Positions 32,825-58,760 of a stretch of 64,000 bases of DNA are shown one piece after another (position 1 is the first letter of the stretch; every line of letters starts with the position of its first letter). A model generated the notes under the pieces. It made no database searches. It saw nothing but the letters and a program-made list of their open reading frames with translations, and had not been told where the DNA came from. The position numbers and the translations under genes are program-made. Origin of the DNA: Candidatus Heimdallarchaeota archaeon (lineage in GTDB: Archaea > Asgardarchaeota > Heimdallarchaeia > JABLTI01); assembly GCA_018238155.1 (NCBI GenBank), contig JABCTZ010000046.1, positions 288,001 to 352,000 of the forward strand, written 5' to 3'.

Positions 32825-32987
32825 ATGGGATTTGCATATATCATTGATTTCAAAAAAAATACTTTATTTGATAAAAAAAGAACATTTAATTTCAAAATTA
32901 ACATTTGTCTAAAAGCAATTTAATACTTGATTAACTTGATTTAAAAAAAATATTTTTTGTAGAAACAATGGATTAATTTTGTAGGAA

Positions 32988-33542: not shown

Positions 33543-33580
33543 ATCTAAAGGTAAACAAATTATTCTTTTATCGAAAAAAG

Positions 33581-33808: not shown

Positions 33809-33922
33809 ATTTTCAACTATCTTTTATTATGATTTTCAATGTGTTTACGATTTGAAATTTAAAATCTATTATGTAACATTTTCAAATTCAGCTACCATTT
33901 GGCAAAAAAATCGTATTGTTAG

Positions 33923-38103: not shown

Positions 38104-38118
38104 AACTTATTACACCTA

Positions 38119-39246: not shown

Positions 39247-39250
39247 TCCC

Positions 39251-41212
39251 TCACTCCATTTTCAAGTTTAAATGAAATGTATTTTCACCGAATATTATTC
39301 TATTTAAGTAAAATAAAGTTATCGGAACTCCTCTATAACCCATTGGTCCCAAATTCCAACAATTGAAAGGGTTTGAAGAAACCTCATCTACACTTAATGA
39401 TAAGTTTCGATTTAATAAATCAAAATCGTTACCATCTATTGAACCTTTATCACCTATGGTCAAAACAGAATGATTTTTAGCCAATGAATTTTGTATTAAA
39501 TCTATAACCACTGTTTTTGTTACAGTTTTTGGTATTATATCTATAGAATGATCTGAAAGTACCATTTTCACTTCTTTATTTTGTCCAAGTTTTGTATTTA
39601 AGTATGAAAATATCGATAACAAATCACTATTTGGAGCTATTATTGTGAGTTGAGTAGGTTTATGTCTTATATCTTTTTCAAATAGACTAAGATATTTATC
39701 ATCACAAAGTAGTTCATTAATTTCATTAACATATGCATTTATTGAAATGTTATCGAAATCAATCTTTTCTGAAAGAAAACCACAAATACTCCCATTATGA
39801 TAACCAACAAAAATTTTCTCATGATATTCCTTTGGAATTTTCTCTATCAAGTCGCGGTTTAGAGAACCTCCTCTACCTGAAGCAATTCCTATCTTGATAT
39901 TATGATCTATTAAATGTAGAAGATTGCTAACAACATCATCAGCGATACCAATTTTTCTTCTTTCAGAGGGACATAATGTGCCATCAAAATCAAAAACTAT
40001 TCCACCGAATTTTTCTTCTGTAAAACTGGCTTGGTAATCATCGAATGATTTTTTCCAAAAATTTCGAACTTGTTTAGTTGAAAAATCAAAATTTGGGAAT
40101 TTTCTTAAAATATATGCTCTATTTGGTTCTTTTCTCCATAATTGATATTTGCTCAATTCTGAAGTTGTTACTGACATTCGATATAGTTTCCTACCAAATT
40201 CAGGAATACCTTGACTTGAAGGGTCAATATTTCTATAAACACCTGCAAGATTTACTAAAAAATATGTTTTTATAAGTAAATCAATAGCTGATAATGGACC
40301 TTCAGAATATTTGGACTTAAAAATGTATTTTGGAATTTTCTCAGGAATTAATGAGAAAGTTCGTTTGAGATTTTTTTCCGATTTTCTATCAGCAAATGCT
40401 AACAAAGAAGATATTTGCCATTTTTTATCAATCCAATTATGTCTTCCATGTCCAAAATTACGATAATCGCTCAGACTAACATTTCCTAATGCTGATTCAC
40501 TATATTTTGATTCCAAATCAATTGCAGCAAATCTACCCCAATTCCCAAATAATACAATAATTGTATCTTTACAAATAATATGCTTCAAATTATTTCTTAG
40601 TGTGTTTTCAAATTCATCAAAATCTTTTGAATCCAAAGCAAACTCATCAAATTCCTTTGGTAGGAAAAGTATTTTCTTATTTGATTTGTAATAAGCTCGT
40701 AGAAATAAAATACTAAATATTAATATAGAATTAACAGCTAGAAAACCATCTTTTTTTGTAGGTAATTTGAAATTAAAATAAGAAATAATTGTGTAATTAG
40801 AGAATTTGGTTATAATAGGTGCATTTGGATTTGCACACACTACAATAATGTGTTTATGCTCTCTTGCTACTGCTTCATTCAAAACGTTAATTATATCAGT
40901 ATTTTTACCAGAAGTTGTAATTAAGATAACAGCTGAATTTGAGGAAGTATTGGTACTAATATAATCCAAAGGTGTCATTGCTTTGGCAATTTGACTTGTA
41001 AATTCACTATGTAATGAAGAAATATAGCTGGCAACTGAATAAGAACCACCAGAACCAATAACAATTAAAGATTCCTCTTTAATCTTCTTAAGATACTTTA
41101 TCAAATTATCAATAGGGTATTTTGTTGCCCAATTATATGCTTTATCCATTTCCTGTAATCTCGTTCTATATTTAGACATTATTAGCACCAAATTTTTTCT
41201 CTCTTCTAGCAC
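39251..41212 (-). CDS. SIS (sugar isomerase) + HAD-IIB phosphatase fusion
   Basis: IGSGGSY and TTSGKNTD (SIS); DYRNFGHGRH; DFDGTL, ASGRG, IGDKG...GNDF (HAD). Start may be ATG 41179. Confidence 0.85.
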   Translation of the reverse strand: MLEERKNLVLIMSKYRTRLQEMDKAYNWATKYPIDNLIKYLKKIKEESLIVIGSGGSYSVASYISSLHSEFTSQIAKAMTPLDYISTNTSSNSAVILITTSGKNTDIINVLNEAVAREHKHIIVVCANPNAPIITKFSNYTIISYFNFKLPTKKDGFLAVNSILIFSILFLRAYYKSNKKILFLPKEFDEFALDSKDFDEFENTLRNNLKHIICKDTIIVLFGNWGRFAAIDLESKYSESALGNVSLSDYRNFGHGRHNWIDKKWQISSLLAFADRKSEKNLKRTFSLIPEKIPKYIFKSKYSEGPLSAIDLLIKTYFLVNLAGVYRNIDPSSQGIPEFGRKLYRMSVTTSELSKYQLWRKEPNRAYILRKFPNFDFSTKQVRNFWKKSFDDYQASFTEEKFGGIVFDFDGTLCPSERRKIGIADDVVSNLLHLIDHNIKIGIASGRGGSLNRDLIEKIPKEYHEKIFVGYHNGSICGFLSEKIDFDNISINAYVNEINELLCDDKYLSLFEKDIRHKPTQLTIIAPNSDLLSIFSYLNTKLGQNKEVKMVLSDHSIDIIPKTVTKTVVIDLIQNSLAKNHSVLTIGDKGSIDGNDFDLLNRNLSLSVDEVSSNPFNCWNLGPMGYRGVPITLFYLNRIIFGENTFHLNLKME

Positions 41213-41299
41213 ATATATTTGATTGTTATTATTAAAACCAATCGAATGTATCCTTGTTTATTTTACTTAAATAGAGCTAATAAAAAATAAAATTAGTGA

Positions 41300-41626
41300 T
41301 TATTTGAAACATCTTTTGAGCTCATTTTCAAATTCACTTGATGATGAAATAATATGAAACATCTCTAATATCCAAGCAATTTCATTTAAATCTTCAAAAG
41401 TGATTTTTTGAGATATCTTAGATAATTCTTCAGAATATTTTGTGAAATTGTTTACTCTAGTTGTTTGTATAGAGTCATAAATAGTTTCTATTAGTTTTAT
41501 CAGACAATCAAAATCTACGTTAGTTTTATTTCGCTGTTTACCGATTATTGATCCTACTGTTTGCCAAATTTCATTGTCTTCAAAAACAGGTTTCTTGTTT
41601 TTGGTTTTGCTGCACCTCTTTCCTTC
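41300..41626 (-). pseudogene. Start-less open frame, probable gene remnant at island junction
   Basis: 108 sense codons (KKPVFEDNEIWQTVGSII...ELKRCFK*) preceded by an in-frame TGA, with no plausible start near the 5' end. Confidence 0.4.
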
Positions 41627-41665
41627 TCAATTGAAGATGTAGAGCAAAAACCAGTTTCTGGTTCA

Positions 41666-43030
41666 TTAGAATAAACAATTATGAATAGCTTTCACTGTTT
41701 CTTTAACATCTTTTCTTCTAACAATAAAATAGTAAGCGATTTCAGATGCTCCTGCGGAAATCATTTCGATATTAATCCCTTTTTGTGCAACTGCTGTAAA
41801 CACATTGGCAGCCATTCCTGAAGTTTTCATTAAGCCCTCTCCAACAATACCAATTAAGCTAATATCCTCCTCCAAAGTGATATTTTGAATAGTATCACCA
41901 ATTAAATCAGTAATAACCTTGTAGCTCTTCTGTGAATCATTTGGATTGATGAGCAAATTAATGCATGTTTGTGAAGTAATAATTGAATAAATATTAACAT
42001 CAATTTTTGCTAATAGATTACCAATATCACCTATGATACCGGGTTTGAATCCAACACCTGGACCTTGAATTCGCAAAACGGCTATATTGTTATTATATGT
42101 TACACTTTTGATAGAAGGTTTGCTCTTTTCAAATTTTGATAATATTATTGTTCCTTCGTTTTGTGGTTGAGAGAAATTACGAATAGTAACATTTATCTTT
42201 GAGTCTATTAAAGGCTCTAAAGCTCTTGGGTGAAGTATTTTCGCTCCAAAATATGCAAGTTCAGCTGCTTCATAATATGATAATTGATTGATTTTCTTTG
42301 CTGTTTTTACTATCGTAGGATCAGCACTCATAAATCCATCAACATTTTTCCAAAGAATGATTGTTTCAGCCTCTAATCCACATGCTACTACTGTGGCACT
42401 ATAATCTGAACCATTTCTACCGAAAGTGGTAATTTTATTATTTTCAGAACAACCAAAATATCCTGTTATAATCGGTGTAATTCCTTTTTGGATTTTAGGT
42501 AGAAGCTTTTGCTTCAAATTCTTCTTTACAACTGAAATATTAGCTGTTGCATTTTCAAAACAGGAATCTGTTATTATTCCTATTGTATCTGCTTCAAAAG
42601 CAAGAGCAACATGATTTTTATCATTTAAAACCCCTGCTAAAAGTATAGCTGCAAGTCTTTCACCAAAACTCAAAATATGCATTTTAACTGAATCTGTCAC
42701 TTCTTCTGTAAATGCTATTCCATAAAGTAATCGCTCTAATTTTACTATTTTGATATCTAAAGTATCAATTACTTCTTGTCTTATGATATCATTAGTGATT
42801 ATTTCATCAGCAAACTCCCTATGCTTTTTTCGGATGTTTTGAATAATTGGTTCAATATTACTTTCAGATTTTTGTGCGAACTCGATACCATTTAGCAATT
42901 CATTTGTAATGCCATTTACTGCAGAGACGACTAACACACAATCATCTTTCTCATTTTTAACTATCTCAACAACTTTCAGGAAATCTGAAACAGAGCATAA
43001 ACACCCACCACCGAATTTCATAACTTTCAA
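41666..43030 (-). CDS. lysC: Aspartate kinase
   Basis: VMKFGG, VVSAVNGITN, SFGERL, TTFGRNGSDYSA, ELAYFGAKILHP, two ACT domains. Confidence 0.96.
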   Translation of the reverse strand: MKVMKFGGGCLCSVSDFLKVVEIVKNEKDDCVLVVSAVNGITNELLNGIEFAQKSESNIEPIIQNIRKKHREFADEIITNDIIRQEVIDTLDIKIVKLERLLYGIAFTEEVTDSVKMHILSFGERLAAILLAGVLNDKNHVALAFEADTIGIITDSCFENATANISVVKKNLKQKLLPKIQKGITPIITGYFGCSENNKITTFGRNGSDYSATVVACGLEAETIILWKNVDGFMSADPTIVKTAKKINQLSYYEAAELAYFGAKILHPRALEPLIDSKINVTIRNFSQPQNEGTIILSKFEKSKPSIKSVTYNNNIAVLRIQGPGVGFKPGIIGDIGNLLAKIDVNIYSIITSQTCINLLINPNDSQKSYKVITDLIGDTIQNITLEEDISLIGIVGEGLMKTSGMAANVFTAVAQKGINIEMISAGASEIAYYFIVRRKDVKETVKAIHNCLF

Positions 43031-43068
43031 TCTAAATCCACCTCTGAAAAACTCAACCCTCTTGTAAT

Positions 43069-44118
43069 TTACTTAAGAAACCCCTCTTGTAAAGCATATT
43101 CAGCATTTAGAATAGATGCTCCCGCAGCACCTCTTAGAGTGTTATGTACTAGCAAGAAGAAATTCACACTAGTACCTTTTCTACGAACACGACCAATTGT
43201 AATTGCCATGCCCAAATTTTTCTCTGTAAGTAAATCACGAGTGGGTTGTGGTCGATCATCCTCAAGTGTGAGTATTATTGGATTCATGGGGGCAGTAGGG
43301 AATGTGTTAGTATCTAATCCATTAAATGATTTGAAGGATTGATTAATTTCTTCCAAAGAAACATCTTCATTAAAATTTACTACAATACTCTCGAGATGAC
43401 CTTCTAAGACAGGAACTCTTGCACAACTTGCATTGATATCAAAATCAGCATCTTGTATCTGCTCACCATCAAATGTTCCAAGTATCTTCTTTGTTTCTAA
43501 CTCCATTTTCTCTTCTTCACCAGATATGAATGGTATGACATTACCTAAAATATCCATGGAAGCAACACCTTTTTTCCCTGCTCCTGAAATAGATTGATAG
43601 GTTGTAACATAAACTTCTCTAATGTTAAATTTTTGAAGTGGACGCAAACCGAATACTAAACCAGAAGTAGAGCAATTTGAATTAGTAACAATGAACCCGG
43701 TACCAAATTTTTGCTTGCCTACTAATTGTAAATGATTGGCATTTATTTCAGGTATCAAAATTGGAACATCAATATCCATTCTGTGAGCATTTGTATTGGA
43801 AAAAACTGCTATGCCTTCTTTTGCCAGATCTATTTCTATATCATAAGCTAATTTGCTAGGAAGTGCACTAAAAACAATATCAAGATTCTCTCGAGATATT
43901 TCTTTGTCCGTATTGTTAACGATAATAGTTTCTCTGACATTTTCAGGAATATCATTTCTCATATACCAATCAACAATCTCACTATACTTTCTCCCGGCAG
44001 ATTTCTTGGAAGCAGTTAAACTAACGATTTCAAAGTGAGGGTGTGAACCTAATAAGCTCACAAATCTTTGACCGACTATTCCGGTAGCACCAAGTATTCC
44101 AATACGATATTTCTTCAT
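43069..44118 (-). CDS. asd: Aspartate-semialdehyde dehydrogenase (archaeal/fungal type)
   Basis: GATGIVGQRF, NSNCST, YQSISGAG, RVPVLEGH, HNTLRGAAG. Confidence 0.97.
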   Translation of the reverse strand: MKKYRIGILGATGIVGQRFVSLLGSHPHFEIVSLTASKKSAGRKYSEIVDWYMRNDIPENVRETIIVNNTDKEISRENLDIVFSALPSKLAYDIEIDLAKEGIAVFSNTNAHRMDIDVPILIPEINANHLQLVGKQKFGTGFIVTNSNCSTSGLVFGLRPLQKFNIREVYVTTYQSISGAGKKGVASMDILGNVIPFISGEEEKMELETKKILGTFDGEQIQDADFDINASCARVPVLEGHLESIVVNFNEDVSLEEINQSFKSFNGLDTNTFPTAPMNPIILTLEDDRPQPTRDLLTEKNLGMAITIGRVRRKGTSVNFFLLVHNTLRGAAGASILNAEYALQEGFLK

Positions 44119-44135
44119 TTTGTTTACTTTTCTCC

Positions 44136-44852
44136 TTAATTTTTTGTTATCTTTTCATAGTCCTCTTTAGCCAGAATAATAGGAGGAATGTTTCCCCATG
44201 AACAAAGGATATCATCATAAATGACCATCATGCCATCAATTCCATCGGTCATTTTTTGTTGCATAATTGAGAGAATGACTGTTTGGCTCTTTTCCATTAT
44301 CTCATTTCCTAAAGCAGTAGCCATAGCATCAGCAAGAATAACATCATCACAAACAACTATTGCTGCATCTGCATTTCCCAGACTAATAGAAGGTCCCACT
44401 GTTGCAGAAGAGGTACAGATTCCCATTATCTTTTCACTTGGTTCTATTTTGAATCCAAGATTATTGAATTCGTTATTCAATCCAGAATATATCCCAACTG
44501 TAATTGGTGCATCAATATGACAAGCAATATCTCCCCCATTATCTACTACAATATAATCTGCTCCAGCATCTTTTACTGCTTTCACAGCAAAATACGCAAT
44601 TGCTCCTGCAACACAAGCCATAGGACCAACATCTGCAATCGCACTTGCAGTGAACATTCTATCTATGATTTCTGGCACATTGTTATTTGGTTTATACGAT
44701 AGAAAAGTTGTACCAAATAAAGCATCTCTCAAAATATACTCTTTAAGAACATCCCTTTGGAAAAGGATCTCATCTTTTACTACTTTCAGATACTTGTCTT
44801 CAGCCAGAATAGTAACAATTGTTTCCTCAATTCGTAAATGATGTCTTTTCAA
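44136..44852 (-). CDS. UPF0280/ApbE-like protein (MA1715-type sulfide assimilation factor)
   Basis: VGPMACVAGAIA, VDNGGDI, GICTSSATVGPSISLGNADA, LADAMATALGN. Confidence 0.9.
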   Translation of the reverse strand: MKRHHLRIEETIVTILAEDKYLKVVKDEILFQRDVLKEYILRDALFGTTFLSYKPNNNVPEIIDRMFTASAIADVGPMACVAGAIAYFAVKAVKDAGADYIVVDNGGDIACHIDAPITVGIYSGLNNEFNNLGFKIEPSEKIMGICTSSATVGPSISLGNADAAIVVCDDVILADAMATALGNEIMEKSQTVILSIMQQKMTDGIDGMMVIYDDILCSWGNIPPIILAKEDYEKITKN

Positions 44853-44865
44853 GTTCTCATCTCAT

Positions 44866-46218
44866 TCAATAGTGTAAAATAGCTTGTTGTGGACAAACAG
44901 CATCACATTGATGACAAGCTGTACATTTTGTTGTGTCAGCGCTAATTTTCCAATCAGACATTCGTACAAAAACATTTGATGGGCAATAAGCAATACAAAG
45001 ACCACAATGGATACATCGTTTTTCGTCTCTGAAAACAACTGCATTTTGCACTTGTCGTTTAGGAAAGCTAAACGTTTTCTCTTTCATTTCAAGCTTTTTC
45101 TCTTTCATTGGATTACATCCACCACTAGTTTGCAATGGCTGAACAGCTTGACTAAGAAAGAATTTTCTCTGAGCAATTCTATTCTTCAAAATTGATGCAA
45201 TTTCTTTTGCTTTTACGAGACTTGAAATTGAAGCAGTTTTTACATCCTTACCTGATAGTTCTACAATACCAGATTGTAAGTCAGCATAGCTTGTTGTTTT
45301 CATCGAGGGTCTATCTCGAGACTGTATAGAATAATCAATAATATCAGTCAAAATTTGTTCATTTCTCTTAGCTGTACTTTGAGCAAGTGAAGCATTCAAA
45401 ATTGGTATGGGAACACCTATCCCCACATATAATGAACAACCGTAGCCTTGAATTGAAGCACCACGTATAAATTCTGGAGTCATTTCCTTTAGATTACCTT
45501 GTACCATAAGGGTGCTGAAATGAGCATCAGGACTATGCTGCGTGCCATTTCCAGTAATATGACCGGTTCCTCCACCTAGAAAAATCCGTGTCCCAAGACC
45601 AATTGTTTGTAGAGATGGGTCATTGTTTATTGGAGAAAGTTCACCTGCACCTGAATAGTTAACATTTCCGTGATTCGGTAACAACTGACCCATATAAGTA
45701 AACAAAGTTTTATTTCCAGAATTTGTTGCAGCATTGTATCGTTCATAGCAATTTCTAGGATTGCTCATAACTGCTTGATTGAGGTCTGCAAGGGTTATTT
45801 CTGTCTCTAACCTTTCTCGAGGATAACAGTCAGTTTTAGATCCTGTTGCTTTTAAGTAGATTGTTTTACCTCGAACAAGATCCTCTATTACATGTCCTCC
45901 ACCGTATTTATCACCCAATATTGTTGAAGTTTGTGTTGCACCAATATAAGCATCTACAGCAGCAACGCCTGAATATGCTTCAACATCATTTAACCAAGTT
46001 TGAGTCATTTTTATAGGAGGATCTGCATGACCAAAGTTTAACCAAACTCCAGAAGAACACATTGCCCCAAAAGTTCCGGTAGTAACAACATCAACTTCTT
46101 GGGCTGCTTTTTCTGCTCCGATTTCTGATACAATATCTTTCATTTCTTCAGCAGTAATAACCACTGCATTTCCTTCAGCAATCTTCTGGTTGATTTCAGC
46201 TATTGTTTTATCTGTCAA
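44866..46218 (-). CDS. L-aspartate-semialdehyde sulfurtransferase (MA1821/MJ0100/DUF39 homocysteine synthase) fused to 2x[4Fe-4S] ferredoxin
   Basis: KTIAEINQKI, VDVVTTGTFGAMCSSG, NPRNCY, TIGLGTRIFLGG; C-terminal CIHCGLCIAYCP and CTACHQCDAVCP. Confidence 0.92.
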   Translation of the reverse strand: MTDKTIAEINQKIAEGNAVVITAEEMKDIVSEIGAEKAAQEVDVVTTGTFGAMCSSGVWLNFGHADPPIKMTQTWLNDVEAYSGVAAVDAYIGATQTSTILGDKYGGGHVIEDLVRGKTIYLKATGSKTDCYPRERLETEITLADLNQAVMSNPRNCYERYNAATNSGNKTLFTYMGQLLPNHGNVNYSGAGELSPINNDPSLQTIGLGTRIFLGGGTGHITGNGTQHSPDAHFSTLMVQGNLKEMTPEFIRGASIQGYGCSLYVGIGVPIPILNASLAQSTAKRNEQILTDIIDYSIQSRDRPSMKTTSYADLQSGIVELSGKDVKTASISSLVKAKEIASILKNRIAQRKFFLSQAVQPLQTSGGCNPMKEKKLEMKEKTFSFPKRQVQNAVVFRDEKRCIHCGLCIAYCPSNVFVRMSDWKISADTTKCTACHQCDAVCPQQAILHY

Positions 46219-46224
46219 AAAAAA

Positions 46225-47025
46225 TCACCCTCGCGGAATATTTGAATTCACCATTTGTTCGGAGGGAGTGTTATTCTCATTTTGAATCTGTTTTGCAAAA
46301 TCTACAATTGCCATTTTCAATGGAGAGGTCTCAGGGAGGTCAACTAAGGGTGTCCCTTCTTCATCATAAATCGTTGCTTGGTCATCTTGAGGTAAAGCTA
46401 AGATATTGTTAAAACCTAACGTCCTTGCATTTGTTATTATCTTTTCAGTATTCTCCTTACGAAGTTTGTTTATAACAAGAAGCTGTTTTTTAATGGGAAT
46501 GTTAAGTTCAATAACAAGGGAATGAATCCTTTTTGCAGTCAATAATCCTCGTTTGCTGGGATCTGAAATAATTATCAGCAAGTCAACATCTCGAGTTGTC
46601 ATTCTACTAAGATGTTCCATACCCGCTTCATTATCAATTACAACATACTTGTATTGTTCAGAAAGCACATCTAAATGCCTACGTAAGAGATTGTTCACGA
46701 AGCAATAACAGCGCTTGCCTTCTGGTCTTCCCATTGCAAGGAGGTCAAATGAGTCTGTCTCAATTAGTGTTTGATGAAGCAAGTATTCAATTAGTCTGTC
46801 TTTTGGCATAGAATCGAATTTAGGATTTCTTTTCAGCGCTTCCTCTCGAATATCGGCAATGCTACTTACAACTGAAATACCTAGAACTTCATTCAAATTC
46901 ATACTTGGATCTGCATCTACAGCTAATAATGCTTCTTTCTCATTTATTAAAGAATCAATTAATAAACCCGTAAAGGTCGTTTTACCTGTTCCTCCTTTTC
47001 CTGCGACCGCTATTGTATAAGTCAA
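46225..47025 (-). CDS. cooC: CooC/AcsF nickel-insertion ATPase
   Basis: GKGGTGKTT, DADP, MGRPEGKRCYCFVN, IDNEAGMEHLSR. Confidence 0.93.
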   Translation of the reverse strand: MTYTIAVAGKGGTGKTTFTGLLIDSLINEKEALLAVDADPSMNLNEVLGISVVSSIADIREEALKRNPKFDSMPKDRLIEYLLHQTLIETDSFDLLAMGRPEGKRCYCFVNNLLRRHLDVLSEQYKYVVIDNEAGMEHLSRMTTRDVDLLIIISDPSKRGLLTAKRIHSLVIELNIPIKKQLLVINKLRKENTEKIITNARTLGFNNILALPQDDQATIYDEEGTPLVDLPETSPLKMAIVDFAKQIQNENNTPSEQMVNSNIPRG

Positions 47026-47034
47026 TTTTTCTAA

Positions 47035-48054
47035 TCACCTCAATGAATAATTTTCTCTTATTTTATCGGATAAACCTCTAGTCATTTGGAATACTGCTAA
47101 TGCGGTATCTTCATCTCTAGCTCCTAATCCACAAGCAGGAGTTATCAATGATGATTGAATGATCTTCTCTTGAGAGATATTGATACTATTTTCAAGTGTA
47201 GCTAACAGCTCCTCGAATTTTGAGAAAAGAGATTCGACTGTTTCTCTCTCAATTTGATCTTTTGCTGTAGGAACTAATCCCCAAGCGATTACACCATCTC
47301 TTTTGAGGAAATTTGACAATTCTTTTCGATATAAAAGAAAATTATCACTGTATTCGTAAGCATCAAAAGATATGATTTGGATATCGGTTTCTAACAAGAA
47401 AGACCAATCTGTATTTGCACAACAATGAACACCTATTTTGCTTTTTGAACTAGAGAGAAGTTCATTTAATGCGTTCTTTATTTTTTGTTGATCTAGAGAA
47501 ACAATTGTTGTGCCCATCAAAGACATATAAGGTTCATCAATAAGGATCAACGTTTCTTTTCCGGCTTGAGAAAGAAATCTCTCTTGCCATCGAATAATAC
47601 TCGAGAGAGTTTTTACGGTAACATCCATTAATAATTCATTATAGATTATTGGTTTGCCATTTTCATCATTAAGATGCAAACCAAAACTTACTGGTCCTGT
47701 TACATGCCCTTTAATTGCTAAACAGTCTTGAAGATCTAATTCGAGAAAATCATAGATTGATGCAGAATATTCTTTACTTATAGCAAGTTCCCTTTCAGAG
47801 TTAAGCACATATTCAGAGTAAAAAGATTCTATGGATTCAATTTGTGTAGAATCGATATTTACACTTCCATTATTATCTACAAAACCAGGGAAGTGTTCAG
47901 TAAACATTGTATACATGTTTTCTTTTGAATTTCTATTTGGCAGCTGTGGCCAGAAAGGTAATTCTTTACAGTAATTCTTCACAAATTCACATGCTTTTTT
48001 TGAATCTTTGAATGGTAAACTTCCAATGCCCGTTGGGAGACAGTTAAACTTAAT
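47035..48054 (-). CDS. Core (folate-independent) methionine synthase, MesB-like, corrinoid protein:homocysteine methyltransferase
   Basis: Frame extends upstream of the ORF-track start to give PTGIGSLP; WPQLP, KGHVTGPVS, IDEP, Zn ligands GVHCC and ITPACGLG; about 340 aa, one barrel only; probable ATT start at 48054. Confidence 0.82.
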   Translation of the reverse strand: MKFNCLPTGIGSLPFKDSKKACEFVKNYCKELPFWPQLPNRNSKENMYTMFTEHFPGFVDNNGSVNIDSTQIESIESFYSEYVLNSERELAISKEYSASIYDFLELDLQDCLAIKGHVTGPVSFGLHLNDENGKPIIYNELLMDVTVKTLSSIIRWQERFLSQAGKETLILIDEPYMSLMGTTIVSLDQQKIKNALNELLSSSKSKIGVHCCANTDWSFLLETDIQIISFDAYEYSDNFLLYRKELSNFLKRDGVIAWGLVPTAKDQIERETVESLFSKFEELLATLENSINISQEKIIQSSLITPACGLGARDEDTALAVFQMTRGLSDKIRENYSLR

Positions 48055-49945
48055 TTTTGATTCCTCCTTTCTTAACTAATAATTCAATTGTTGGGAATAG
48101 TTCAAGATTTGTATGTGGAATAAAAGAAGCAAGTGTATACTCATCCATGAACTCATAATTGTTGGATAATTCGATATTTGTAACAGTTCGAGATAGCTCT
48201 TCAGCTTCTATCTGTTTCTCTCTGGATAGAAGAGCAATTCTGGCACCTCCAAGTGAGCCATTTCCAAGGAATTTGATCCGTTCATGAGGGATATCCGGAA
48301 ATAGTCCAATTGTTATCGAAGCTTTGATATTTAGATTGTTGCCAAACCCTCCAGAAACATAGAAGGAATCAAGATCATCAAAGGATAGACCAAATGATTT
48401 TAGCAAGATTAAATAACCTGCATAAAATGCCCCTTTAGTTTTCAAAAGATTTGAGATATCATATTCTGTTAATATAATGTCTTTTCCTGTTTGAGTTTCC
48501 GAACCTTCTAAGAGTAGATATTCTAAACCATGTTCTCCCTTTCGAATACGTCTATTCCCACCCATCTTCAATCTCCCTGCTTTAGTAAGAACATTGGCTC
48601 TGAATAATTCAGCAAGAATATCTACTAAACCTGAACCGCATATGCCTGTTGGTTTCCCTTCACCTATGACAGAAAAAACAGGATCCAATGATAGGTAATC
48701 TAGAGATACCTTTTCGATTGCACCTACTGCAGCTCTCATACCACACTGTACTTCTGCTCCTTCGAGAGCAGGTCCCGCGGGTACGGAACATGATAGAATC
48801 CAAGAGCTACATCCAAGAACTATTTCTCCATTTGTTCCAATATCAACTAACATGCTTGGTTTTTCTTTCAGATGTAATTCAGAGAGGAGCATATTAGATA
48901 CGATATCCCCACCAACATAGCTTGAAACACAAGGAAGAATGTAAACAAATGCTGAAGAAGCAATATTTAAACCTAATTTACTAGCTTTGATTTTTGGCAG
49001 ATGTCTAAAAACCGGAGTATACGGTTCCTTCCAGATATAGGAAGGATTTACTTTGAGTAATAAATGACTCATAACAGTATTTCCCGAGATAGAGACAGCT
49101 TTGATATCATTAGAATCCACTGAGAAACCTTTGATAAGGTTATTAATATCGTTTATAAGAAGCTCTTGAATTTTCTTCAGATTTTGTTCTGAAGAAGATG
49201 CAAAATGTATTCGAGTGATCACATCTTCACCGTAAATCATCTGACTATTGATTGCTGTAGTTGTATCAATGATTTCTCCTGTAGATAGTTTCAGAAGATT
49301 GATTGCTATTGTTGTGGTACCAATATCAATTGCTAAACCTAACAATTCTTGGTTTTTCACTTTAGATATTTCAGATACTTCTACGAATCCTTGAACAATA
49401 CTCTCGAGAGTAACTTCTACTTTCCAATTATTTTCTCTCAATAATTGAGGAAGTTTTTGAAGCAAAGCAAAGGGTATAGATATCTTACTTTCAGAGTAAT
49501 GTTTATTTAATTCTGCTAGAAGCCTGTCCATATCAGAGAGATTGCTGTAATTTTTTGGTGGAGCGATATTAACAATAATTTGTTTGATTGAAGGATTTAT
49601 TTTTATTTCAGAGCCAACACACTTCACGAGTATTTTTTGATTTGTAACAATACTTTCATTTGGAACGTAGACTTTCGCATTCCCTTTCACTTTTGTTTGG
49701 CAAGCTAAACAATAACCTTGATCTAGTTCTTCTTGAGTGAATATTTTCTCATGAAAAATGCCTTTTTTGGTTATTTTTCCTGATAATACCAGTACAACAC
49801 ATTTTCCACACTTTCCATGTTCACCACAGGGAATATTAAGAATAATACCTGCTTTCTTTGCAGCTGTTAGGATGGTCTCTCCCAAAGGTATTTCTATACT
49901 TTGATTATTGGGTTGAAATATAACTGAAACCATTTTATCAACCAT
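48050..49945 (-). CDS. acsV: ASKHA-type ATP-dependent reductive activator of corrinoid proteins (RACE/AcsV) with N-terminal 2Fe-2S domain
   Basis: CGEHGKCGKC...CLACQ, AIDIGTTT, YGEDVITRI, DIGTNGEIV, AGPALEG, GICGSG; start placed at ATG 49945 (TAATG overlap with acsC). Confidence 0.9.
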   Translation of the reverse strand: MVDKMVSVIFQPNNQSIEIPLGETILTAAKKAGIILNIPCGEHGKCGKCVVLVLSGKITKKGIFHEKIFTQEELDQGYCLACQTKVKGNAKVYVPNESIVTNQKILVKCVGSEIKINPSIKQIIVNIAPPKNYSNLSDMDRLLAELNKHYSESKISIPFALLQKLPQLLRENNWKVEVTLESIVQGFVEVSEISKVKNQELLGLAIDIGTTTIAINLLKLSTGEIIDTTTAINSQMIYGEDVITRIHFASSSEQNLKKIQELLINDINNLIKGFSVDSNDIKAVSISGNTVMSHLLLKVNPSYIWKEPYTPVFRHLPKIKASKLGLNIASSAFVYILPCVSSYVGGDIVSNMLLSELHLKEKPSMLVDIGTNGEIVLGCSSWILSCSVPAGPALEGAEVQCGMRAAVGAIEKVSLDYLSLDPVFSVIGEGKPTGICGSGLVDILAELFRANVLTKAGRLKMGGNRRIRKGEHGLEYLLLEGSETQTGKDIILTEYDISNLLKTKGAFYAGYLILLKSFGLSFDDLDSFYVSGGFGNNLNIKASITIGLFPDIPHERIKFLGNGSLGGARIALLSREKQIEAEELSRTVTNIELSNNYEFMDEYTLASFIPHTNLELFPTIELLVKKGGIKN

Positions 49946-51294
49946 TATTTTTTCCTCCAAATTTTGTTCAAATAATAAGCAATATCTGCTGAATCTGCAG
50001 GTCCAACAAGAACTTTCCATGAAGACGCATCCTCAATTTCTGAGGACATTGGAGAAAGAAAACCAGGGATGATGATTGTATTATGGTCTACTTTTGAAGT
50101 AAGGTTCTCAGAATTTATTGCCTCAGCAATCTTCTCTGCTGATAATTTATCTGCAGCATAAGCTGTTAGAACAGATGTACCTTCTGTATCTAAAACAAGT
50201 AAATAGCTAGGGTAACCACATGATTCGATATCATTTGAAACGGTGAAATAAGTCAATGAAAAATTAGTTGTAAGAAATACAGGTGAATTCTTATCAACTT
50301 CACCAAAGGTGTATACTCCAGGATCTACTTGTATTGGTTTTTGAGGGTCTGTAAAGATGTTTTGACGTAAAACTAATAGAGGTGCCAATTGATTGAGTGC
50401 ATTATCACTCAGCACCATTATTGAAGAATATTTTATTGATAATAGACCCGCAAGTAATATTTCTTGTGCAAACTCTTCTTGGGAGTGTTTAAACGGAAAA
50501 CTAATAATTGGATAACCAAAATCACGTTTTTTGTTGTAAACAGCATTCCATCGTATCAAAATTTGATTTTCTATTGTCTCTTGAATATTACTTCCTGTAC
50601 AATCCAACACTAGATCTTTAATTCCTTGTTTTTTAGCTAATGAAACTAACTGTACTAATCCATCAATCCCTTTTTGTGAGGATAGAATAACTGATGTTTG
50701 ATATTTTTCCGCTAATCGCAAAATCTCCTGCAGATTGTCCTCTCTTCCAAAACCAATTAACACTTGAGAATTACTAAGTAATTGTAGAGCCTCTTCTAAT
50801 ACTTCTGCTCTAACACTAAGAAGACAAATTGGTAATCCAGTTGCATTCTGAACATTTTTCACCAATTTGACGAATGGTTCTTTTTTCTTGGAATCATTAG
50901 ATAAAGCAATCATATTTGTTGAAAGTTGATCTGCAAGGCGCTCTATTGATTTCTTCTTAATTTTCCTCTTAATGGATTCTTCTGAATCTAAATCTGAAAT
51001 CATTATACAAAGAACTGTTTCGTTAAAGAATTTCTTTTCGTGACGATAGAATACAGTTTCACCACCAAAATGTATTTCTTCGTTCCCTCTTTTTGTAGTA
51101 ATTTCTTTAACAGGAGGTAAAGTTGCTTCATCTAATTGAGTTTTAATTTCATCTGCTAAATACGGGCATTCAGATGCTTTTGCATTTTTTTGTGCTAATC
51201 TCATTGCAAATGCTAAACATGTAGGCAGTCCACATTCTCCACAATTTGTTTTCGGAAGCAATTTATAGTAATCGAGTGTATTAGACATTCTCAA
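49945..51294 (-). CDS. acsC: Corrinoid iron-sulfur protein large subunit (AcsC/CdhE)
   Basis: LPKTNCGECGLPTCLAFA, GGETVFYRHEK, LRQNIFTDPQKP, TTNFSLTYFTV, SVLTAYAA. Confidence 0.96.
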   Translation of the reverse strand: MRMSNTLDYYKLLPKTNCGECGLPTCLAFAMRLAQKNAKASECPYLADEIKTQLDEATLPPVKEITTKRGNEEIHFGGETVFYRHEKKFFNETVLCIMISDLDSEESIKRKIKKKSIERLADQLSTNMIALSNDSKKKEPFVKLVKNVQNATGLPICLLSVRAEVLEEALQLLSNSQVLIGFGREDNLQEILRLAEKYQTSVILSSQKGIDGLVQLVSLAKKQGIKDLVLDCTGSNIQETIENQILIRWNAVYNKKRDFGYPIISFPFKHSQEEFAQEILLAGLLSIKYSSIMVLSDNALNQLAPLLVLRQNIFTDPQKPIQVDPGVYTFGEVDKNSPVFLTTNFSLTYFTVSNDIESCGYPSYLLVLDTEGTSVLTAYAADKLSAEKIAEAINSENLTSKVDHNTIIIPGFLSPMSSEIEDASSWKVLVGPADSADIAYYLNKIWRKK

Positions 51295-52167
51295 TCATAC
51301 TCCAATTGTTTTTCGGAAAAGAGCCAACGATTCTGGATGTCTAAAAACAAGCAAATCGCCTCCAGCAGCATAGAGAGATGCAGCTGTTGATGCTTCCCAT
51401 AAAAATCCTCGAGGAGCAATAGGGCCCCAATCGGGATATTCAAATGCTGTTTCTCTTGCCCGCCATGCATCTTGCACGAAACAAATCATTGGTGAGGAAA
51501 GCATTTCATCCCCAGATAATGCTAAGGCTCGGATTCGTTCCATCGCAGAGAAAGTATATTCCAATCCATAACCTAAACAAGCAACCATCGGATCGATTAC
51601 AATTCTCTTTAGTGGTAGACCAAAATCAGATAGCAGTATATTCAATTGCTTTGCAATATTCACATCAATTGGAGATAAAGCTACAATACAATGATTATAT
51701 GCAAGAGCTATAGCTGTAATTGACTTGTATGTCTCAAGCTCAGCAGCACATAGTAGTAAATTGTATCCCTGCCCTAATTCCCCACAAAGGTTAAGTATTG
51801 GTTGATCTTTTCCTACTTCGCCTGGACCGGAAATAATTAATGGGATAGAAATCTCTTGTAAAATATCCGGAAGATAATTGGTGACATTAGATTCAGTAGA
51901 GAAATTTATGTGTAATGCATCTATCTTGAATTTTCTTTCACATAATTTTGCCCATTCAACCAGATTATCATATTGATCTTTGTATGGATCATTTACTGTA
52001 TTAGGGAATGCTAATCCACTATCTGAGATATGTAATGCTAATTTGGGTTTGTAATTTGGATCGAGAAATGGAAGGGTGGTTTGTCCACCTAAACTAATAG
52101 AGTTATTTTTTGAACCAAGAGTAACTTTGGCTATATTCCCATTAAAGGATAACTTTTCAAGACTCAT
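51295..52167 (-). CDS. acsD: Corrinoid iron-sulfur protein small subunit (AcsD/CdhD)
   Basis: GGQTTLPF, SPIDVNIAKQLN, DP...LGYGLEYTFSAMERIR, AGGDLLVFRHP. Confidence 0.95.
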   Translation of the reverse strand: MSLEKLSFNGNIAKVTLGSKNNSISLGGQTTLPFLDPNYKPKLALHISDSGLAFPNTVNDPYKDQYDNLVEWAKLCERKFKIDALHINFSTESNVTNYLPDILQEISIPLIISGPGEVGKDQPILNLCGELGQGYNLLLCAAELETYKSITAIALAYNHCIVALSPIDVNIAKQLNILLSDFGLPLKRIVIDPMVACLGYGLEYTFSAMERIRALALSGDEMLSSPMICFVQDAWRARETAFEYPDWGPIAPRGFLWEASTAASLYAAGGDLLVFRHPESLALFRKTIGV

Positions 52168-52178
52168 TTCATATCCTC

Positions 52179-54257
52179 CTAAAAAATTGAATCCATTTTC
52201 AATGCCGGATGTTTTACTCGGTCAAGGAAACTCATTAGATCATCTAAAGATTGGACTAAGTCTTCATCAGCTATTTTCTCAATCAACCCTGGAGCAAGAT
52301 CTTCAACTCGATCGTGTAGAAACGATTTGAGTTCTTTAGGCATCCAAACTATGCGCTGTATTCCCCCCTCCGCTAACAGGAATTTCTCAGAAACAATATA
52401 GTTTTTCCCTATACCAATAAATCCTGGAGATTGTACTCCTCCGCCCACAGTTCCTGCAAGAGTGCTAAAGGTAATACCTAGTGGTGTTGTTCCTGAGTAT
52501 TCTCGAGGAACAATCATTATTCCATTTGCTTCAGGTATCACTGCAGCTATACATTCAAAACAACCACAAGATGTGAGAGGATTATTCATAATACTATAAA
52601 GACAAATATCATCTATTGCTCCATGAGATTCTTTGCGAACGTATTGATTCACTCCTGCCCATCTACCTAGTTTAGCATCTAGTTGTTCACCAACAGAAAC
52701 GGGTTGATTACCACCTGTAGGATTAATTTCAAAACTAGTTTTAGCATCTAACCAATTGACTGCTCCACATAAGCCAGTTCTTTCGGGAGAAATAATGCAA
52801 ACATGATTTGGTGCGAAAGATTGACAGAGAAGACAAGAATAGAAAGTTGATACAGATTCATCCACTAAATTCTTCAGACGGTTATCTCTTAAAAGATAGC
52901 TTTCTTTCGCTGTTGGTAAAAGCTCCTCAACTTTTGGCAGGGTAGTATAAAGCTTGACTTGAACTTTATCAACAATGCTAGAAAATAGGGAATGGATTTT
53001 GGAATAAATTATTACCCCTAGATGTCTAATTTGGAATCCTTTAGCAACAGCTTCTTTACTTATTCGGAACCAAATGAGATCACGTTGAGCATTGTGCCAT
53101 AACCCATCGGCGAAGTTAATGAAATGATGGATTTGTCTTTCAAAAACAGGCTCGAAATCTGATTGCATTTTTTTACCGGCAACTTCTACAATAATTGCGA
53201 TAGGAAGACTGGTACCTTCCTGAATATCTTTTATCTCAGGACCAATAACAGATATTTCTCCATCGTTTACTTCATCCAAAGGTTTTGTTTGTAGAAATTC
53301 AAAGGCAAGAGTTCGTCCTCCACCAAATTCAACATAAGTGTCTGGTTTTCGAATTGCTTGCCCTTCAAAAGCAAAACTATAATTAATTGGGATGGGAATA
53401 TCGTCAATAATTGGTTTAATATCTCTTAGAGCAAGACTCTGATCCACTAATTCCTTTCGCTCTTGATCTGTAAAAGTAGGTGACAAGTAATCGATAAATG
53501 GAATGCCTGTTGCTTTTAATCCTGCAGAAATCGTCTGTAATAGATTTGTTTTCTCGCCCATAAATATAACAAATGCAGGTATTTTTTCTCCCAAATAAGC
53601 TATTAATGCTTCACTATCGCCGGGTTTCACTCCTCCAAATGATAAAGCTAAACGAATAGCAAGGTTTACTGCATGAGTAAATGCATAAAATTCATCTCCT
53701 AAGGGAACAACTAAACATTCTAAACCTGAATGTACTTTAGCTTCAAATAATTGTTTGGCTATCCCTCCAACAAATAGTGAAAGAATATTTCTCTTTTGAA
53801 AATCACTGACTAAATTCTTAACATCCTCGTTTGAATTTGCTTTACCAACAACAATTGCTAATCCGGCTATTGAACCATCAACAAGAGGAACGCCTAGCTT
53901 TCGAAAAATAGCATCAGGAATGAATCCGGTAAATGGTTGAGTGAATTTTTGATTTTTACTAAATTGTACACTCTCAATTATCTCAATAAAAACTAATGAG
54001 AACAAACCCATTTGTGTAACAGTAATTTCAACAGTATTATTTATTTCTTTTATTAGTGAATTTAGAAATGTCTTTAGGTGATCAGCAGTAGCTATTTTCT
54101 CGTTGAAAATGCTATAAATTGTTGGAAGATAATAGCCTGTTTCAGGGAAGGAAATGGTCATTTCCCCCTCTAGTTGATTCACAACAGTTTTTGCATTCTC
54201 AAACAATTCCGTAAACCCTAGCTTGATTTGTTCTTGGTACAATTTGCGATTATTCAT
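52179..54257 (-). CDS. acsB: Acetyl-CoA synthase, bacterial long form (AcsB)
   Basis: N-terminal domain (FPETGYYLP, GFIPDAIFRKLGVPLVDG); A-cluster ligands FYSCLLCQSFAPNHVCIISPERTGLCGA and TSCGCFEC intact. Confidence 0.95.
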   Translation of the reverse strand: MNNRKLYQEQIKLGFTELFENAKTVVNQLEGEMTISFPETGYYLPTIYSIFNEKIATADHLKTFLNSLIKEINNTVEITVTQMGLFSLVFIEIIESVQFSKNQKFTQPFTGFIPDAIFRKLGVPLVDGSIAGLAIVVGKANSNEDVKNLVSDFQKRNILSLFVGGIAKQLFEAKVHSGLECLVVPLGDEFYAFTHAVNLAIRLALSFGGVKPGDSEALIAYLGEKIPAFVIFMGEKTNLLQTISAGLKATGIPFIDYLSPTFTDQERKELVDQSLALRDIKPIIDDIPIPINYSFAFEGQAIRKPDTYVEFGGGRTLAFEFLQTKPLDEVNDGEISVIGPEIKDIQEGTSLPIAIIVEVAGKKMQSDFEPVFERQIHHFINFADGLWHNAQRDLIWFRISKEAVAKGFQIRHLGVIIYSKIHSLFSSIVDKVQVKLYTTLPKVEELLPTAKESYLLRDNRLKNLVDESVSTFYSCLLCQSFAPNHVCIISPERTGLCGAVNWLDAKTSFEINPTGGNQPVSVGEQLDAKLGRWAGVNQYVRKESHGAIDDICLYSIMNNPLTSCGCFECIAAVIPEANGIMIVPREYSGTTPLGITFSTLAGTVGGGVQSPGFIGIGKNYIVSEKFLLAEGGIQRIVWMPKELKSFLHDRVEDLAPGLIEKIADEDLVQSLDDLMSFLDRVKHPALKMDSIF

Positions 54258-54303
54258 AGAAGCGTTTTTATTGGATTCTATTTATAATATTTTGTGAGAG
54301 TAT

Positions 54304-54319
54304 TATTCCAATTGGAATA
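54304..54319. promoter_or_regulatory. Perfect 16-bp palindrome, probable operator
   Basis: TATTCCAATTGGAATA in the 80-bp divergent spacer between acsB and the HTH-CBS gene, near the TATA-like TTTATAAT. Confidence 0.6.
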
Positions 54320-54337
54320 TTTGGGATATGGCAAAAA

Positions 54338-54913
54338 ATGTTTCCAGATTTGTCTGAAATTAAACGAAGAAGGAAAATATTGGGACTAACTCAAAAAGAA
54401 TTAGCTGAAATTGCTGATGTTAGTCAATCTCTGATAACAAAAATCGAAAAAGAGATGATTAGTCCTTCGTATCACTTGGTTATTAAAATCTTTGAGAGTA
54501 TTAGAGATTTGGAGAACGAAACTAATCAAAAAGCAAAGGATATTATGTCTTATCCAATTGTTACAGTATCTCCTGATGATACTTTGGAGAATGTTACGAT
54601 GGTAATGCGAAAACATGCTTTCTCTCAATTACCAGTTTTAAACTCAAAAGATTCATGTATCGGAAGTATCAGCGACCGAATAATAATTAGTCTTGTATCA
54701 AAGTCACTTGATGAGAAATTTGATTTTGATTCGGTAGCAGATCTTAAAGTAAAAGAAGTAATGGGTGATTCTTTTCCAGTTATACCATCAAAAACACCTC
54801 TAAACGCAATTTCTACATTATTGCAAACAGTGCCTGCAGTTTTAGTGATGGAAGGTAGAGAAATAATGGGAATTATAACACGAGCAGACATGTTCGAGAT
54901 CTTCATAAAATAA
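54338..54913 (+). CDS. XRE-HTH + tandem CBS transcriptional regulator
   Basis: RRKILGLTQKELAEIADVSQSLITKIE HTH; CBS pair (FSQLPV, GIITRAD). Confidence 0.9.
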   Translation: MFPDLSEIKRRRKILGLTQKELAEIADVSQSLITKIEKEMISPSYHLVIKIFESIRDLENETNQKAKDIMSYPIVTVSPDDTLENVTMVMRKHAFSQLPVLNSKDSCIGSISDRIIISLVSKSLDEKFDFDSVADLKVKEVMGDSFPVIPSKTPLNAISTLLQTVPAVLVMEGREIMGIITRADMFEIFIK

Positions 54914-54979
54914 TCTATTGTTGGTATTCATTCAAAGCTATTTTTCTTATTTATTATTCTTAACTAGGTAAAAAAATGA

Positions 54980-55070
54980 GTGTGTCTCCGAGTAACTATG
55001 ATCAGTCCTTATCGGGTGCTAGCCAAGCATTGGTCCCGACTCAACTTGTCGGATTTCTTCACAGACACAT
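54980..55070 (-). ncRNA. Candidate structured small RNA (possible K-turn/C/D-box-like)
   Basis: GC-rich patch in an AT-rich spacer; terminal helix TGTGTCT/AGACACA, internal hairpins, C-box-like GTGAAGA; T7 tract downstream on the minus strand. Confidence 0.5.
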
Positions 55071-55222
55071 ATAACCTTTCAAGCTAATCTCTCAAAAGCT
55101 TTTCTAAACATATACATTAAATATTAAAGAAAAAAAGACTTTAGATTTAATTTAACTAGGACAAGCTATAATAACGTGTATTGCTATATTTCATGTAATG
55201 AACAAAGGAGCTGAATTTCATA

Positions 55223-55864: not shown

Positions 55865-55981
55865 CTTTTGAGTAAGTAATAGCAATGAATAAAAAAGTGA
55901 TTATTAAATCACAACACAAGATAATCATAAAGTTGAAAGAAGGAAATTAAAAGAAAAAAAGTATTATTTTGGAGGAATTTT

Positions 55982-56782: not shown

Positions 56783-56788
56783 TTTTAA

Positions 56789-58153: not shown

Positions 58154-58180
58154 TCAAATAAAAGTAGATTTAATCAGTAG

Positions 58181-58696: not shown

Positions 58697-58760
58697 AAAG
58701 ATGTTTGCTGAAAAGTAAAAATATAATTGAAAAGTATGTAATCGATATTGCATAATTTAT

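Follow-up and report, generated by a model that had tools for sequence, protein, structure and literature searches.

A ten-gene operon predicted to make methionine from aspartate, sulfide and acetyl-CoA in a Heimdall-type Asgard archaeon

We analysed a 64-kb window of the genome of a Candidatus Heimdallarchaeota archaeon (positions 288001-352000 of contig C7 in the source assembly, here called G000; 4.08 Mb, ~32% GC, 90.7% complete, 5.9% contamination), which holds an operon of ten genes in the order acsB-acsD-acsC-acsV-mesB-cooC-HcyBioFd-UPF0280-asd-lysC and a divergent regulator gene beside it. The ten genes and the regulator probably form one accessory unit for the de novo synthesis of methionine, which would require neither homoserine nor a methyl-pterin. 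From family assignments and comparative genomics, we infer the following route. LysC and Asd would convert aspartate to aspartate semialdehyde, and a COG1900-ferredoxin enzyme with a MA1715-type helper would combine the semialdehyde reductively with sulfide to give homocysteine. AcsB would cleave acetyl-CoA and methylate the corrinoid iron-sulfur protein AcsCD, and MesB would pass the methyl group to zinc-activated homocysteine to give methionine. AcsV would re-reduce oxidised corrinoid, and a CooC/AcsF-type ATPase would load nickel into AcsB. Transcription would start from a TATA box just upstream of acsB, and the translation of mesB would be coupled to that of acsV through an AUU start codon. 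Most likely, the "Wood-Ljungdahl" genes of this operon form a cassette for amino-acid synthesis and do not point to CO2 fixation.

Gene identities were assigned by Pfam and NCBIfam profile searches, and the scores are quoted against the model cut-offs (Table 1). As the original prediction stated, the ten open reading frames (ORFs; 41666-54257, minus strand) are co-oriented and tightly packed, and none of them encodes a carbon monoxide dehydrogenase (CODH), AcsE, homoserine dehydrogenase or MetA/MetB. The placement of the ORFs also stands, except for two starts: acsV begins at 49945 and not at 50020, and mesB begins at an ATT codon at 48054 and not at the GTG codon at 47982. With the revised starts, the nine junctions comprise two 1-nt overlaps and gaps of 0, 6, 9, 11, 13, 17 and 38 nt. 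Each of the ten genes is the sole copy in G000, as judged by tblastn of the assembly.

Table 1. Features of the operon and its control region (window coordinates)
Feature	Position	Strand	Basis
lysC, aspartate kinase with ACT domains	41666..43030	-	TIGR00657 360 vs 209; sole copy
asd, archaeal-type aspartate-semialdehyde dehydrogenase	43069..44118	-	TIGR00978 423 vs 301; sole copy
UPF0280/ApbE-like protein, MA1715 type (predicted sulfide trafficking)	44136..44852	-	NF003324 279.9 vs 275, 237/238 positions
HcyBioFd, predicted L-aspartate-semialdehyde sulfurtransferase (COG1900/HcyBio) with C-terminal 2x[4Fe-4S] ferredoxin	44866..46218	-	PF01837 480 bits, Fer4
cooC, CooC/AcsF-type Ni-insertion ATPase (predicted)	46225..47025	-	CbiA/AAA_31 P-loop; sole copy
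mesB, predicted core methionine synthase, 339 aa, AUU start	47035..48054	-	Alignment, GGAGG-N8-ATT, MetE fold
acsV (RACo), ATP-dependent reductive corrinoid activator	48050..49945	-	Fer2, RACo_linker, Raco_middle, RACo_C_ter
acsC, large corrinoid-binding subunit with N-terminal Fe-S domain	49945..51294	-	NF003195 516 vs 306; Pfam FeS, CdhD
acsD, small subunit of the corrinoid Fe-S protein	51295..52167	-	NF003376 290.7 vs 280
acsB, bacterial-type acetyl-CoA synthase with N-terminal domain	52179..54257	-	NF040764 884 vs 800; sole copy
TATA-like box	54279..54292	-	~28 nt before acsB ATG; assigned by position
Inverted repeat TATTCC-N4-GGAATA, candidate operator	54304..54319		Kept in six loci
Divergent regulator, HTH_3 and CBS pair, 191 aa	54338..54913	+	Pfam HTH_3, CBS
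Presence/absence block: ten genes and regulator	41673..54978		Comparison with congener G077

The fifth gene of the operon has no Pfam match, including to Meth_synt_1 and Meth_synt_2, and a PDB sequence search with its product gives no match at E <= 0.01. The nearest relatives outside the Heimdall-type archaea are "methionine synthase" proteins of Dehalococcoidia and Anaerolineae, with 36-45% identity. As a proxy for the operational MesB cut-off of Price 2021 (at least 173 bits to DET0516 by phmmer; PMC7857596), the protein scores 254-289 bits against homologues at 37-47% identity, which include proteins named methionine synthase in Dehalococcoidia, Dehalococcoidales and Anaerolineales. In an alignment of 59 sequences (A3), the zinc ligands H210, C212, D231 and C308 are invariant, as is D173, and S12 is found in at least 90% of the rows. 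These residues agree with the MesB pattern of Price et al., that is, the zinc ligands H-x-C...D/E...C and the homocysteine-binding positions, here S12 and D173 (PMC7857596). The AlphaFold model (pLDDT 95.1) shows one catalytic barrel of the MetE type and lacks the folate-binding N-terminal domain; its best PDB fold matches are the C-terminal catalytic barrels of MetE, followed by MesD (3rpd) and then by the UROD/MtaA fold. On the alignment and the model, the fifth gene is predicted to encode a MesB-type core methionine synthase.

The length of mesB depends on the start codon, with 315 aa from the GTG chosen by the ORF finder, 293 aa in the public calls and 339 aa from the ATT codon. The homologues extend about 25-50 residues further at the N-terminus and open with a conserved C-L-x-T-G-I-G-S-L-P stretch, and this stretch is encoded in frame upstream of any ATG, GTG or TTG codon of mesB. 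The first mesB codon after a GGAGG-N8 spacer is the ATT at 48054, which overlaps the acsV stop codon. The same GGAGG-N8-ATT arrangement is present in five loci (this one and L005, L006, L008 and L108), where ATT overlaps TAA or TAG, and another locus, L026, has a plain ATG at exactly the position of the ATT codon. Because this arrangement is kept across the loci, we assign mesB to 47035-48054 with an AUU start and translational coupling to acsV; owing to the AUU start codon, the public calls lack 46 residues. A truncated mesB is ruled out, since the conserved N-terminal stretch is intact in frame. A fusion of AcsV and MesB by a +1 frameshift is ruled out by the GGAGG at the 8-nt spacing of initiation, as is seen for acsV, and further by L026, in which an ATG stands at the mesB codon and acsV ends two codons downstream with a non-overlapping stop.

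The published precedent for the use of such an enzyme is Dehalococcoides mccartyi, in which the methyl group of methionine derives from C2 of acetate, in which CODH, AcsE and MetF are lacking, and in which the core-MetE uses methylcobalamin and not methyl-tetrahydrofolate (PMC7005905; PMC7857596). The incomplete Wood-Ljungdahl pathway of this bacterium is attributed to Zhuang 2014 as cited in PMC7005905. That MesB receives its methyl group from the corrinoid Fe-S protein after acetyl-CoA cleavage was proposed in print in 2020-2021 (PMC7005905, PMC7857596). Here, both subunits of the corrinoid Fe-S protein are encoded within mesB's own operon. Complex prediction of MesB with AcsC(80-449) and AcsD gives a median score of 0.49 with a best control of 0.00; the runs share at least 59% of their contacts, and the pLDDT of the partners is at least 86. 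For calibration, 58 of the 80 solved complexes reach the mark, as do 2 of the 110 mismatched pairs, and at scores of 0.60 or lower it is reached by only 7 of the 80 solved complexes and by both of the passing mismatches. The predicted complex lends weak support to the docking of MesB on AcsC and AcsD. Given this weakness, and given that MesB uses free methylcobalamin in vitro (PMC7005905), the MesB-like protein might methylate another thiol or take its methyl group from a corrinoid protein other than AcsCD, and the gene neighbourhood would then reflect shared cofactors. However, the homocysteine-binding positions (S12 and D173) and all four zinc ligands are conserved, the translation of mesB is coupled to that of acsV amid the acs genes, and the homocysteine genes follow in seven loci, so that we find this possibility quite unlikely.

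AcsB is of the bacterial type. NF040764 covers residues 22-691, an N-terminal CODH_A_N domain is present, and the protein is a full-length three-domain acetyl-CoA synthase (ACS) with the A-cluster ligand motifs C-x-x-C and C-G-C. In AcsV, all four Pfam domains score over their cut-offs, and the NF040756 score (591) lies under the strict cut-off of 800. The acsV start at 49945 has the form GGAGG-N8-ATG with a TAATG overlap at the acsC stop codon, and the relatives of AcsV are 632-633 aa long. The CooC-like protein has the Walker A motif GKGGTGKT and a C-Y-C motif, and its gene occupies the same position as in the bacterial six-gene modules described below.

No match to AcsE is found in G000, where Pterin_bind matches only a dihydropteroate synthase and a protein of methanopterin synthesis that resembles MJ0107. 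MtrH, MetF (methylenetetrahydrofolate reductase), Mer, MetE (Meth_synt_2), homoserine dehydrogenase and DapB also have no match in the whole assembly. A search of the genome for acsE, metE and metF had been named in advance as a check, and all three are without a match in this assembly. Because AcsE, MtrH, MetF and Mer are all unmatched, no known methyl-pterin pool can be linked to the acs genes; because homoserine dehydrogenase and DapB are unmatched, aspartate semialdehyde has no other recognised sink. The description of the operon as self-contained is borne out by these absences, including that of MetE, and by the single copies of its ten genes. G000 does encode two copies of Ftr (formyl-methanofuran:tetrahydromethanopterin formyltransferase) and genes for tetrahydromethanopterin (H4MPT) biosynthesis. 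The two Ftr genes indicate that a C1-pterin pool exists, with no recognised reduction to the methyl level and no recognised transfer to the corrinoid protein.

Two candidates for other routes were considered and put aside. Three genes of the dihydrodipicolinate synthase (DHDPS) family were set aside as a lysine sink, since DapB has no match and since one of the three also carries a formaldehyde-activating enzyme as a fusion partner. At C15:~144750-146260 (L011:1483-2997), a 504-aa protein combines DapA/DHDPS (TIGR00674, 212 bits, just above the cut-off) with a formaldehyde-activating domain (TIGR03126, 167 bits). A pyridoxal phosphate-dependent Cys/Met-metabolism enzyme on contig C41 was rejected as MetY/MetB, because it scores under every curated cut-off and has no substrate route without homoserine dehydrogenase. 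Adjoining it, at C41:~282600-283300 (L014:2797-3468), lies the gene of a 223-aa protein of the ERG2/Sigma-1-receptor family (PF04622, 202 bits), a family typical of eukaryotes.

The search for cdhA/cooS gave a different result from that expected of a CODH-less genome. G000 has one CooS-type CODH (C44:22439-24124; TIGR01702, 732 bits) on a contig whose GC content matches the genome. Its neighbours are genes for a lactate-permease-like protein, a metallo-beta-lactamase-fold protein and a glycyl-radical enzyme with its activase, and no cooF, cooC or acs genes are found near it. We compiled phyletic profiles for 83 species representatives of the class, with 12 genomes in the family and ten congeners. 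Among the 83 genomes, CooS is present in G000 and in four congeners without the operon, and it is absent from G004, the genome that carries L026. A bifunctional CODH/ACS is not what these data describe, as the operon contains no Prismane gene and CODH is neither encoded in it nor co-distributed with AcsB. G000 is thus not a CODH-less genome, while G004 is one. Since the distribution of CooS is independent of the operon, the CODH-less use of ACS proposed at the outset holds for the operon as a unit, but not for the G000 genome.

The presence of CooS raises the question of a conventional CODH/ACS, in which the acs genes and the contig-44 CooS make acetyl-CoA for carbon fixation or acetogenesis and MesB merely skims methyl groups. 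CooS has the full length and a full score, AcsB keeps the N-terminal domain used for CODH docking, and the Ftr and H4MPT biosynthesis genes are present. Such a pathway would need methyl-corrinoid from CO2 or methylene-pterin, but without a match to Mer, MetF, AcsE or MtrH no known route leads there. In addition, CooS is solitary, without CooF, CooC or acs neighbours, and occurs in four ACS-less congeners while missing from G004. Eme et al. infer that the Wood-Ljungdahl pathway was lost in the ancestor of the Heimdallarchaeia, and this loss fits a secondary, biosynthetic use of the acs genes. Taken together, we regard a conventional CODH/ACS as unlikely.

The flow through the operon could also be reversed, with MesB moving the methyl group of methionine or of a different methyl thioether to the corrinoid protein and AcsB forming acetyl-CoA with CO and CoA in a catabolism of methyl groups. 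Methionine is a poor methyl donor unless it is activated. In principle, the methyl transfers by AcsB and the corrinoid protein can run both ways, CO could come from CooS, and the MttB-type methyltransferases of the family suggest a methylotrophic habit; however, G004 carries the operon without a CooS as a source of CO, and fusion with four genes whose sole known role is to make homocysteine from aspartate would be senseless for catabolism. We consider reverse flow very unlikely. If the operon works in the direction of methionine synthesis, the solitary CooS may oxidise the released CO in G000, as an activity outside the system. Oxidation of CO by CooS would yield two ferredoxin electrons, which is the number that L-ASST (L-aspartate-semialdehyde sulfurtransferase) needs with HS- (PMC12068725). 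Because these numbers match, the by-product could pay for the sulfur step in G000.

HcyBioFd, the predicted sulfurtransferase of this operon, matches PF01837 over its full length and carries two 4Fe-4S motifs at its C-terminus, with neither a NIL domain nor a CBS pair. It scores 162 bits against the MMP16 model TIGR03287 (cut-off 364) and is therefore distinct from MMP16. The fusion of COG1900 and ferredoxin is common across Asgard archaea, with 55-60% identity. The relatives of the UPF0280 protein have products annotated as PF27030, and we take this protein to be equivalent to MA1715. The roles of MA1715 and L-ASST in the formation of homocysteine from aspartate semialdehyde and sulfide have been described (PMC12068725). 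The module resembles the methanogen pair MA1821-MA1822 with MA1715 (PMC12068725) in its COG1900 domain, ferredoxin input, ApbE-like helper and predicted chemistry, and it differs from that pair in that the ferredoxin is fused to COG1900 and that asd and lysC lie in the same operon. Unlike methanogen L-ASST, the enzyme has no CBS pair here, and a CBS pair is found on the separate helix-turn-helix (HTH) regulator. The order HcyBioFd-UPF0280-asd-lysC also exists as a free-standing four-gene operon in a Promethearchaeota/Loki-type locus (L109) and a Thorarchaeota/Thor-type locus (L110), with the same genes, the same order and 55-60% identity of HcyBioFd, but without acs and mesB genes and without an HTH-CBS neighbour. 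An asd gene is found in 15 of the 83 class genomes and has no match in the 11 other genomes of the family.

The full ten-gene order is kept in six other Heimdall-type loci (L005, L006/L007, L008, L026, L108 and L117), with 43-78% protein identity and 43-56% identity for MesB. The operon search suggested in the original prediction thus recovered the complete arrangement, and the recurrence of the same genes in the same order shows that it is not due to chance. We also surveyed the gene neighbourhoods of mesB at the 80 nearest loci from species-representative genomes. The full set is present only in the archaeal L026 among these 80, no non-Heimdall locus among them has HcyBio, asd or lysC beside mesB, and the Chloroflexota mesB genes are mostly solitary. 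Two Deferrimicrobiaceae loci (L062 and L093) have acsB-acsD-acsC-acsV-mesB-cooC in the same order, with 32-45% identity, and L061 and L066 hold parts of this acs-mesB module on short contigs. Such modules, which occur in Deferrimicrobiaceae and in further bacteria (Price 2021 Fig 3B, PMC7857596; L062, L093), share six genes and their order with the Heimdall operon, but they stop after cooC, whereas the Heimdall operon continues into the homocysteine genes. Because each half stands alone elsewhere, the Heimdall operon can be understood as a fusion of an Asgard-type homocysteine module with a bacterial-type ACS/MesB module. The separate occurrence of the halves in other lineages would also suit two adjacent transcription units, acs-mesB-cooC and hcy-asd-lysC, joined by chance in a variable region. 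This is highly improbable, as the cooC-HcyBioFd junction measures 6 nt and is kept in seven loci from lineages down to 43% MesB identity, and gain or loss affects the block in its entirety; the functional reading would survive two transcripts in any case. As a side observation, genes for a NikR_C-domain protein and for the Ni/Co uptake protein CbiM follow downstream of the operon at a distance of about 2 kb in one locus (L108:16242-17798), in keeping with the nickel and cobalt that AcsB and the corrinoid protein require.

The distribution of the operon within the class shows that it is accessory. AcsB (PF03598), MesB and HcyBioFd are each found in the same two of the 83 genomes, G000 and G004, and in none of the ten congeners, and acetyl-CoA synthase occurs in the class only inside the ten-gene operon. 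Among 400 Asgard representatives, true MesB is likewise limited to G000 and G004, and 11 others have only paralogues with 28-32% identity. That the "Wood-Ljungdahl" genes are biosynthetic, as originally proposed, gains support from this restriction of AcsB to the operon, from the single copies and from the absence of AcsE, MtrH, MetF, Mer, MetE and homoserine dehydrogenase. The closest congener, G077 (89% identity in PyrC), has a contig that aligns to the window at 85-88% nucleotide identity. In G077, the segments corresponding to window positions 41297-41672 and 54979-59408 are only about 150 bp apart, and the missing 13.3 kb are exactly lysC to acsB plus the divergent regulator. No flanking repeats were seen at the block. 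Positions 28406-33554 and 33813-41297, the second of which holds defence-type genes, are also absent from G077; since these neighbouring stretches are specific to G000, the operon sits in a variable, island-like region. The metagenomic copies of the operon are 72-78% identical, within the range of divergence in the genus (57-89% for PyrC among congeners), and the block could reflect either a gain or a loss.

Other genes of the region were noted in passing. The stretch at 36166-41212, absent from G077, contains ORC-CDC6-like, PRTase-CE (defence-type) and SIS/HAD genes. The amidohydrolase at 56789-58153 was rejected as a methylthioadenosine/S-adenosylhomocysteine deaminase of the S-adenosylmethionine (SAM) cycle, as it is a dihydroorotase. 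Its orthologues in two congeners (G077:C36:15962-17320 and G081:C4:73022-74350) have one in-frame stop codon each (TAG and TAA), which could be due to sequencing error, to a pseudogene or to stop-codon recoding as in some Asgard lineages.

The upstream region of acsB was compared in an alignment of the 80-bp acsB/regulator intergenic region from six loci with proteins ~50-65% identical (A2). The inverted repeat TATTCC-N4-GGAATA differs between the six loci only by single substitutions in the half-sites, and it occurs once in the 64-kb window. The TATA-like sequence AAATATTATA, about 12 nt downstream of the repeat, is invariant. A genome-wide scan with the core of the repeat gives 23 scattered matches, none of them in a TATA context, and reveals no wider regulon. 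No GGAGG or other Shine-Dalgarno sequence precedes acsB, whereas acsV and mesB have GGAGG. This lack, together with the TATA box ~28 nt before the ATG, suggests that acsB is a leaderless first gene, and its transcript is probably leaderless. The HTH-CBS gene is divergent beside the operon in L005, L006, L008, L026 and L108 and is nearby in L117, and within the class no genome other than the two with the operon has an orthologue above 200 bits. The HTH-CBS protein probably binds the adjacent inverted repeat and is predicted to control the operon. Its signal is likely an adenosyl ligand such as SAM, a guess made partly because methanogen L-ASST carries CBS domains and HcyBioFd does not. Two genes for proteins with only CBS domains (213 and 266 aa) follow the regulator at 55223-56782, outside the block and shared with G077. 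In G042 (C13:511-1551 and 8763-9308), which belongs to a different family within the class, an HTH-CBS paralogue with 36% identity lies ~7 kb from asd, which hints that the HTH-CBS family may be tied to aspartate-family genes more widely.

Methylation of homocysteine is not limited to the operon. PF02574 homocysteine S-methyltransferases are present in every one of the 12 family genomes, so the baseline of the family is homocysteine re-methylation, to which the operon would add de novo homocysteine and an internal source of methyl groups. On the minus strand of contig C21 (~91800-96400; L025:5846-10356), G000 has a cluster encoding a HEAT-repeat protein, a B12-binding protein (221 aa), a PF02574 homocysteine S-methyltransferase (295 aa), a MetH-activation-like domain (219 aa) and an MttB-family methyltransferase (487 aa). 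By its gene content, the cluster looks like a split, methylamine-fed methionine synthase.

Several points weigh against the operon as a methionine-producing unit. Direct transfer from the corrinoid Fe-S protein is so far a hypothesis for every MesB, and Deobald et al. call it speculation (PMC7005905). The second homocysteine-methylating system, of the corrinoid/MttB type, is core to the family, and MesB is therefore not needed merely to methylate homocysteine. AcsB retains its N-terminal domain, the CODH-docking part of Moorella-type enzymes, and the genome has CooS, so a conventional CODH/ACS complex may still exist in this strain. The ligand proposed for the CBS regulator is guesswork, and with 90.7% completeness and 5.9% contamination the gene absences in G000 fall short of proof.

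Compared with known systems, the proposed unit follows the published scheme of Dehalococcoides mccartyi, with which it shares AcsB and AcsCD, the lack of AcsE and MetF, a MesB-type zinc methyltransferase and the proposed flow from acetyl-CoA through methyl-corrinoid to methionine with CO as a by-product. Unlike in D. mccartyi, all parts and the whole homocysteine pathway are gathered here in a single operon that has its own regulator, the unit belongs to an Asgard archaeon with a free-standing CooS, and it is accessory rather than core. The link between MesB and the corrinoid protein, the clustering of mesB with acs genes and the CODH-less precedent are already published. The fusion of ACS-MesB with a full aspartate-to-homocysteine route and its occurrence in Asgard archaea seem not to have been described in the literature, and the same seems true of the block-wise accessory distribution, the AUU start, and the conserved operator with its HTH-CBS regulator.

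A more far-reaching proposal can be put forward only tentatively, and we would sooner doubt it than accept it: the 13.3-kb unit may be a self-regulated, portable cassette for methionine prototrophy that spreads or disappears en bloc among Heimdall-type archaea, in which a CODH-free ACS serves only for methyl extraction, the HTH-CBS protein senses SAM and the AUU start tunes MesB against the corrinoid machinery. If this is true, the HTH-CBS protein would be an archaeal protein counterpart of MetJ or of the SAM riboswitch. The operon packs the unproven transfer from the corrinoid Fe-S protein to MesB, the activase, the nickel insertase and the homocysteine supply into one expressible unit, and a five-year-old transfer hypothesis thereby becomes open to heterologous expression. 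Heimdall acs genes of this kind would have to be scored as amino-acid biosynthesis and not as autotrophy or acetogenesis. With the operon in one species and in none of its ten congeners, its carriers are predicted to be the methionine prototrophs of their communities and may be sources of CO.

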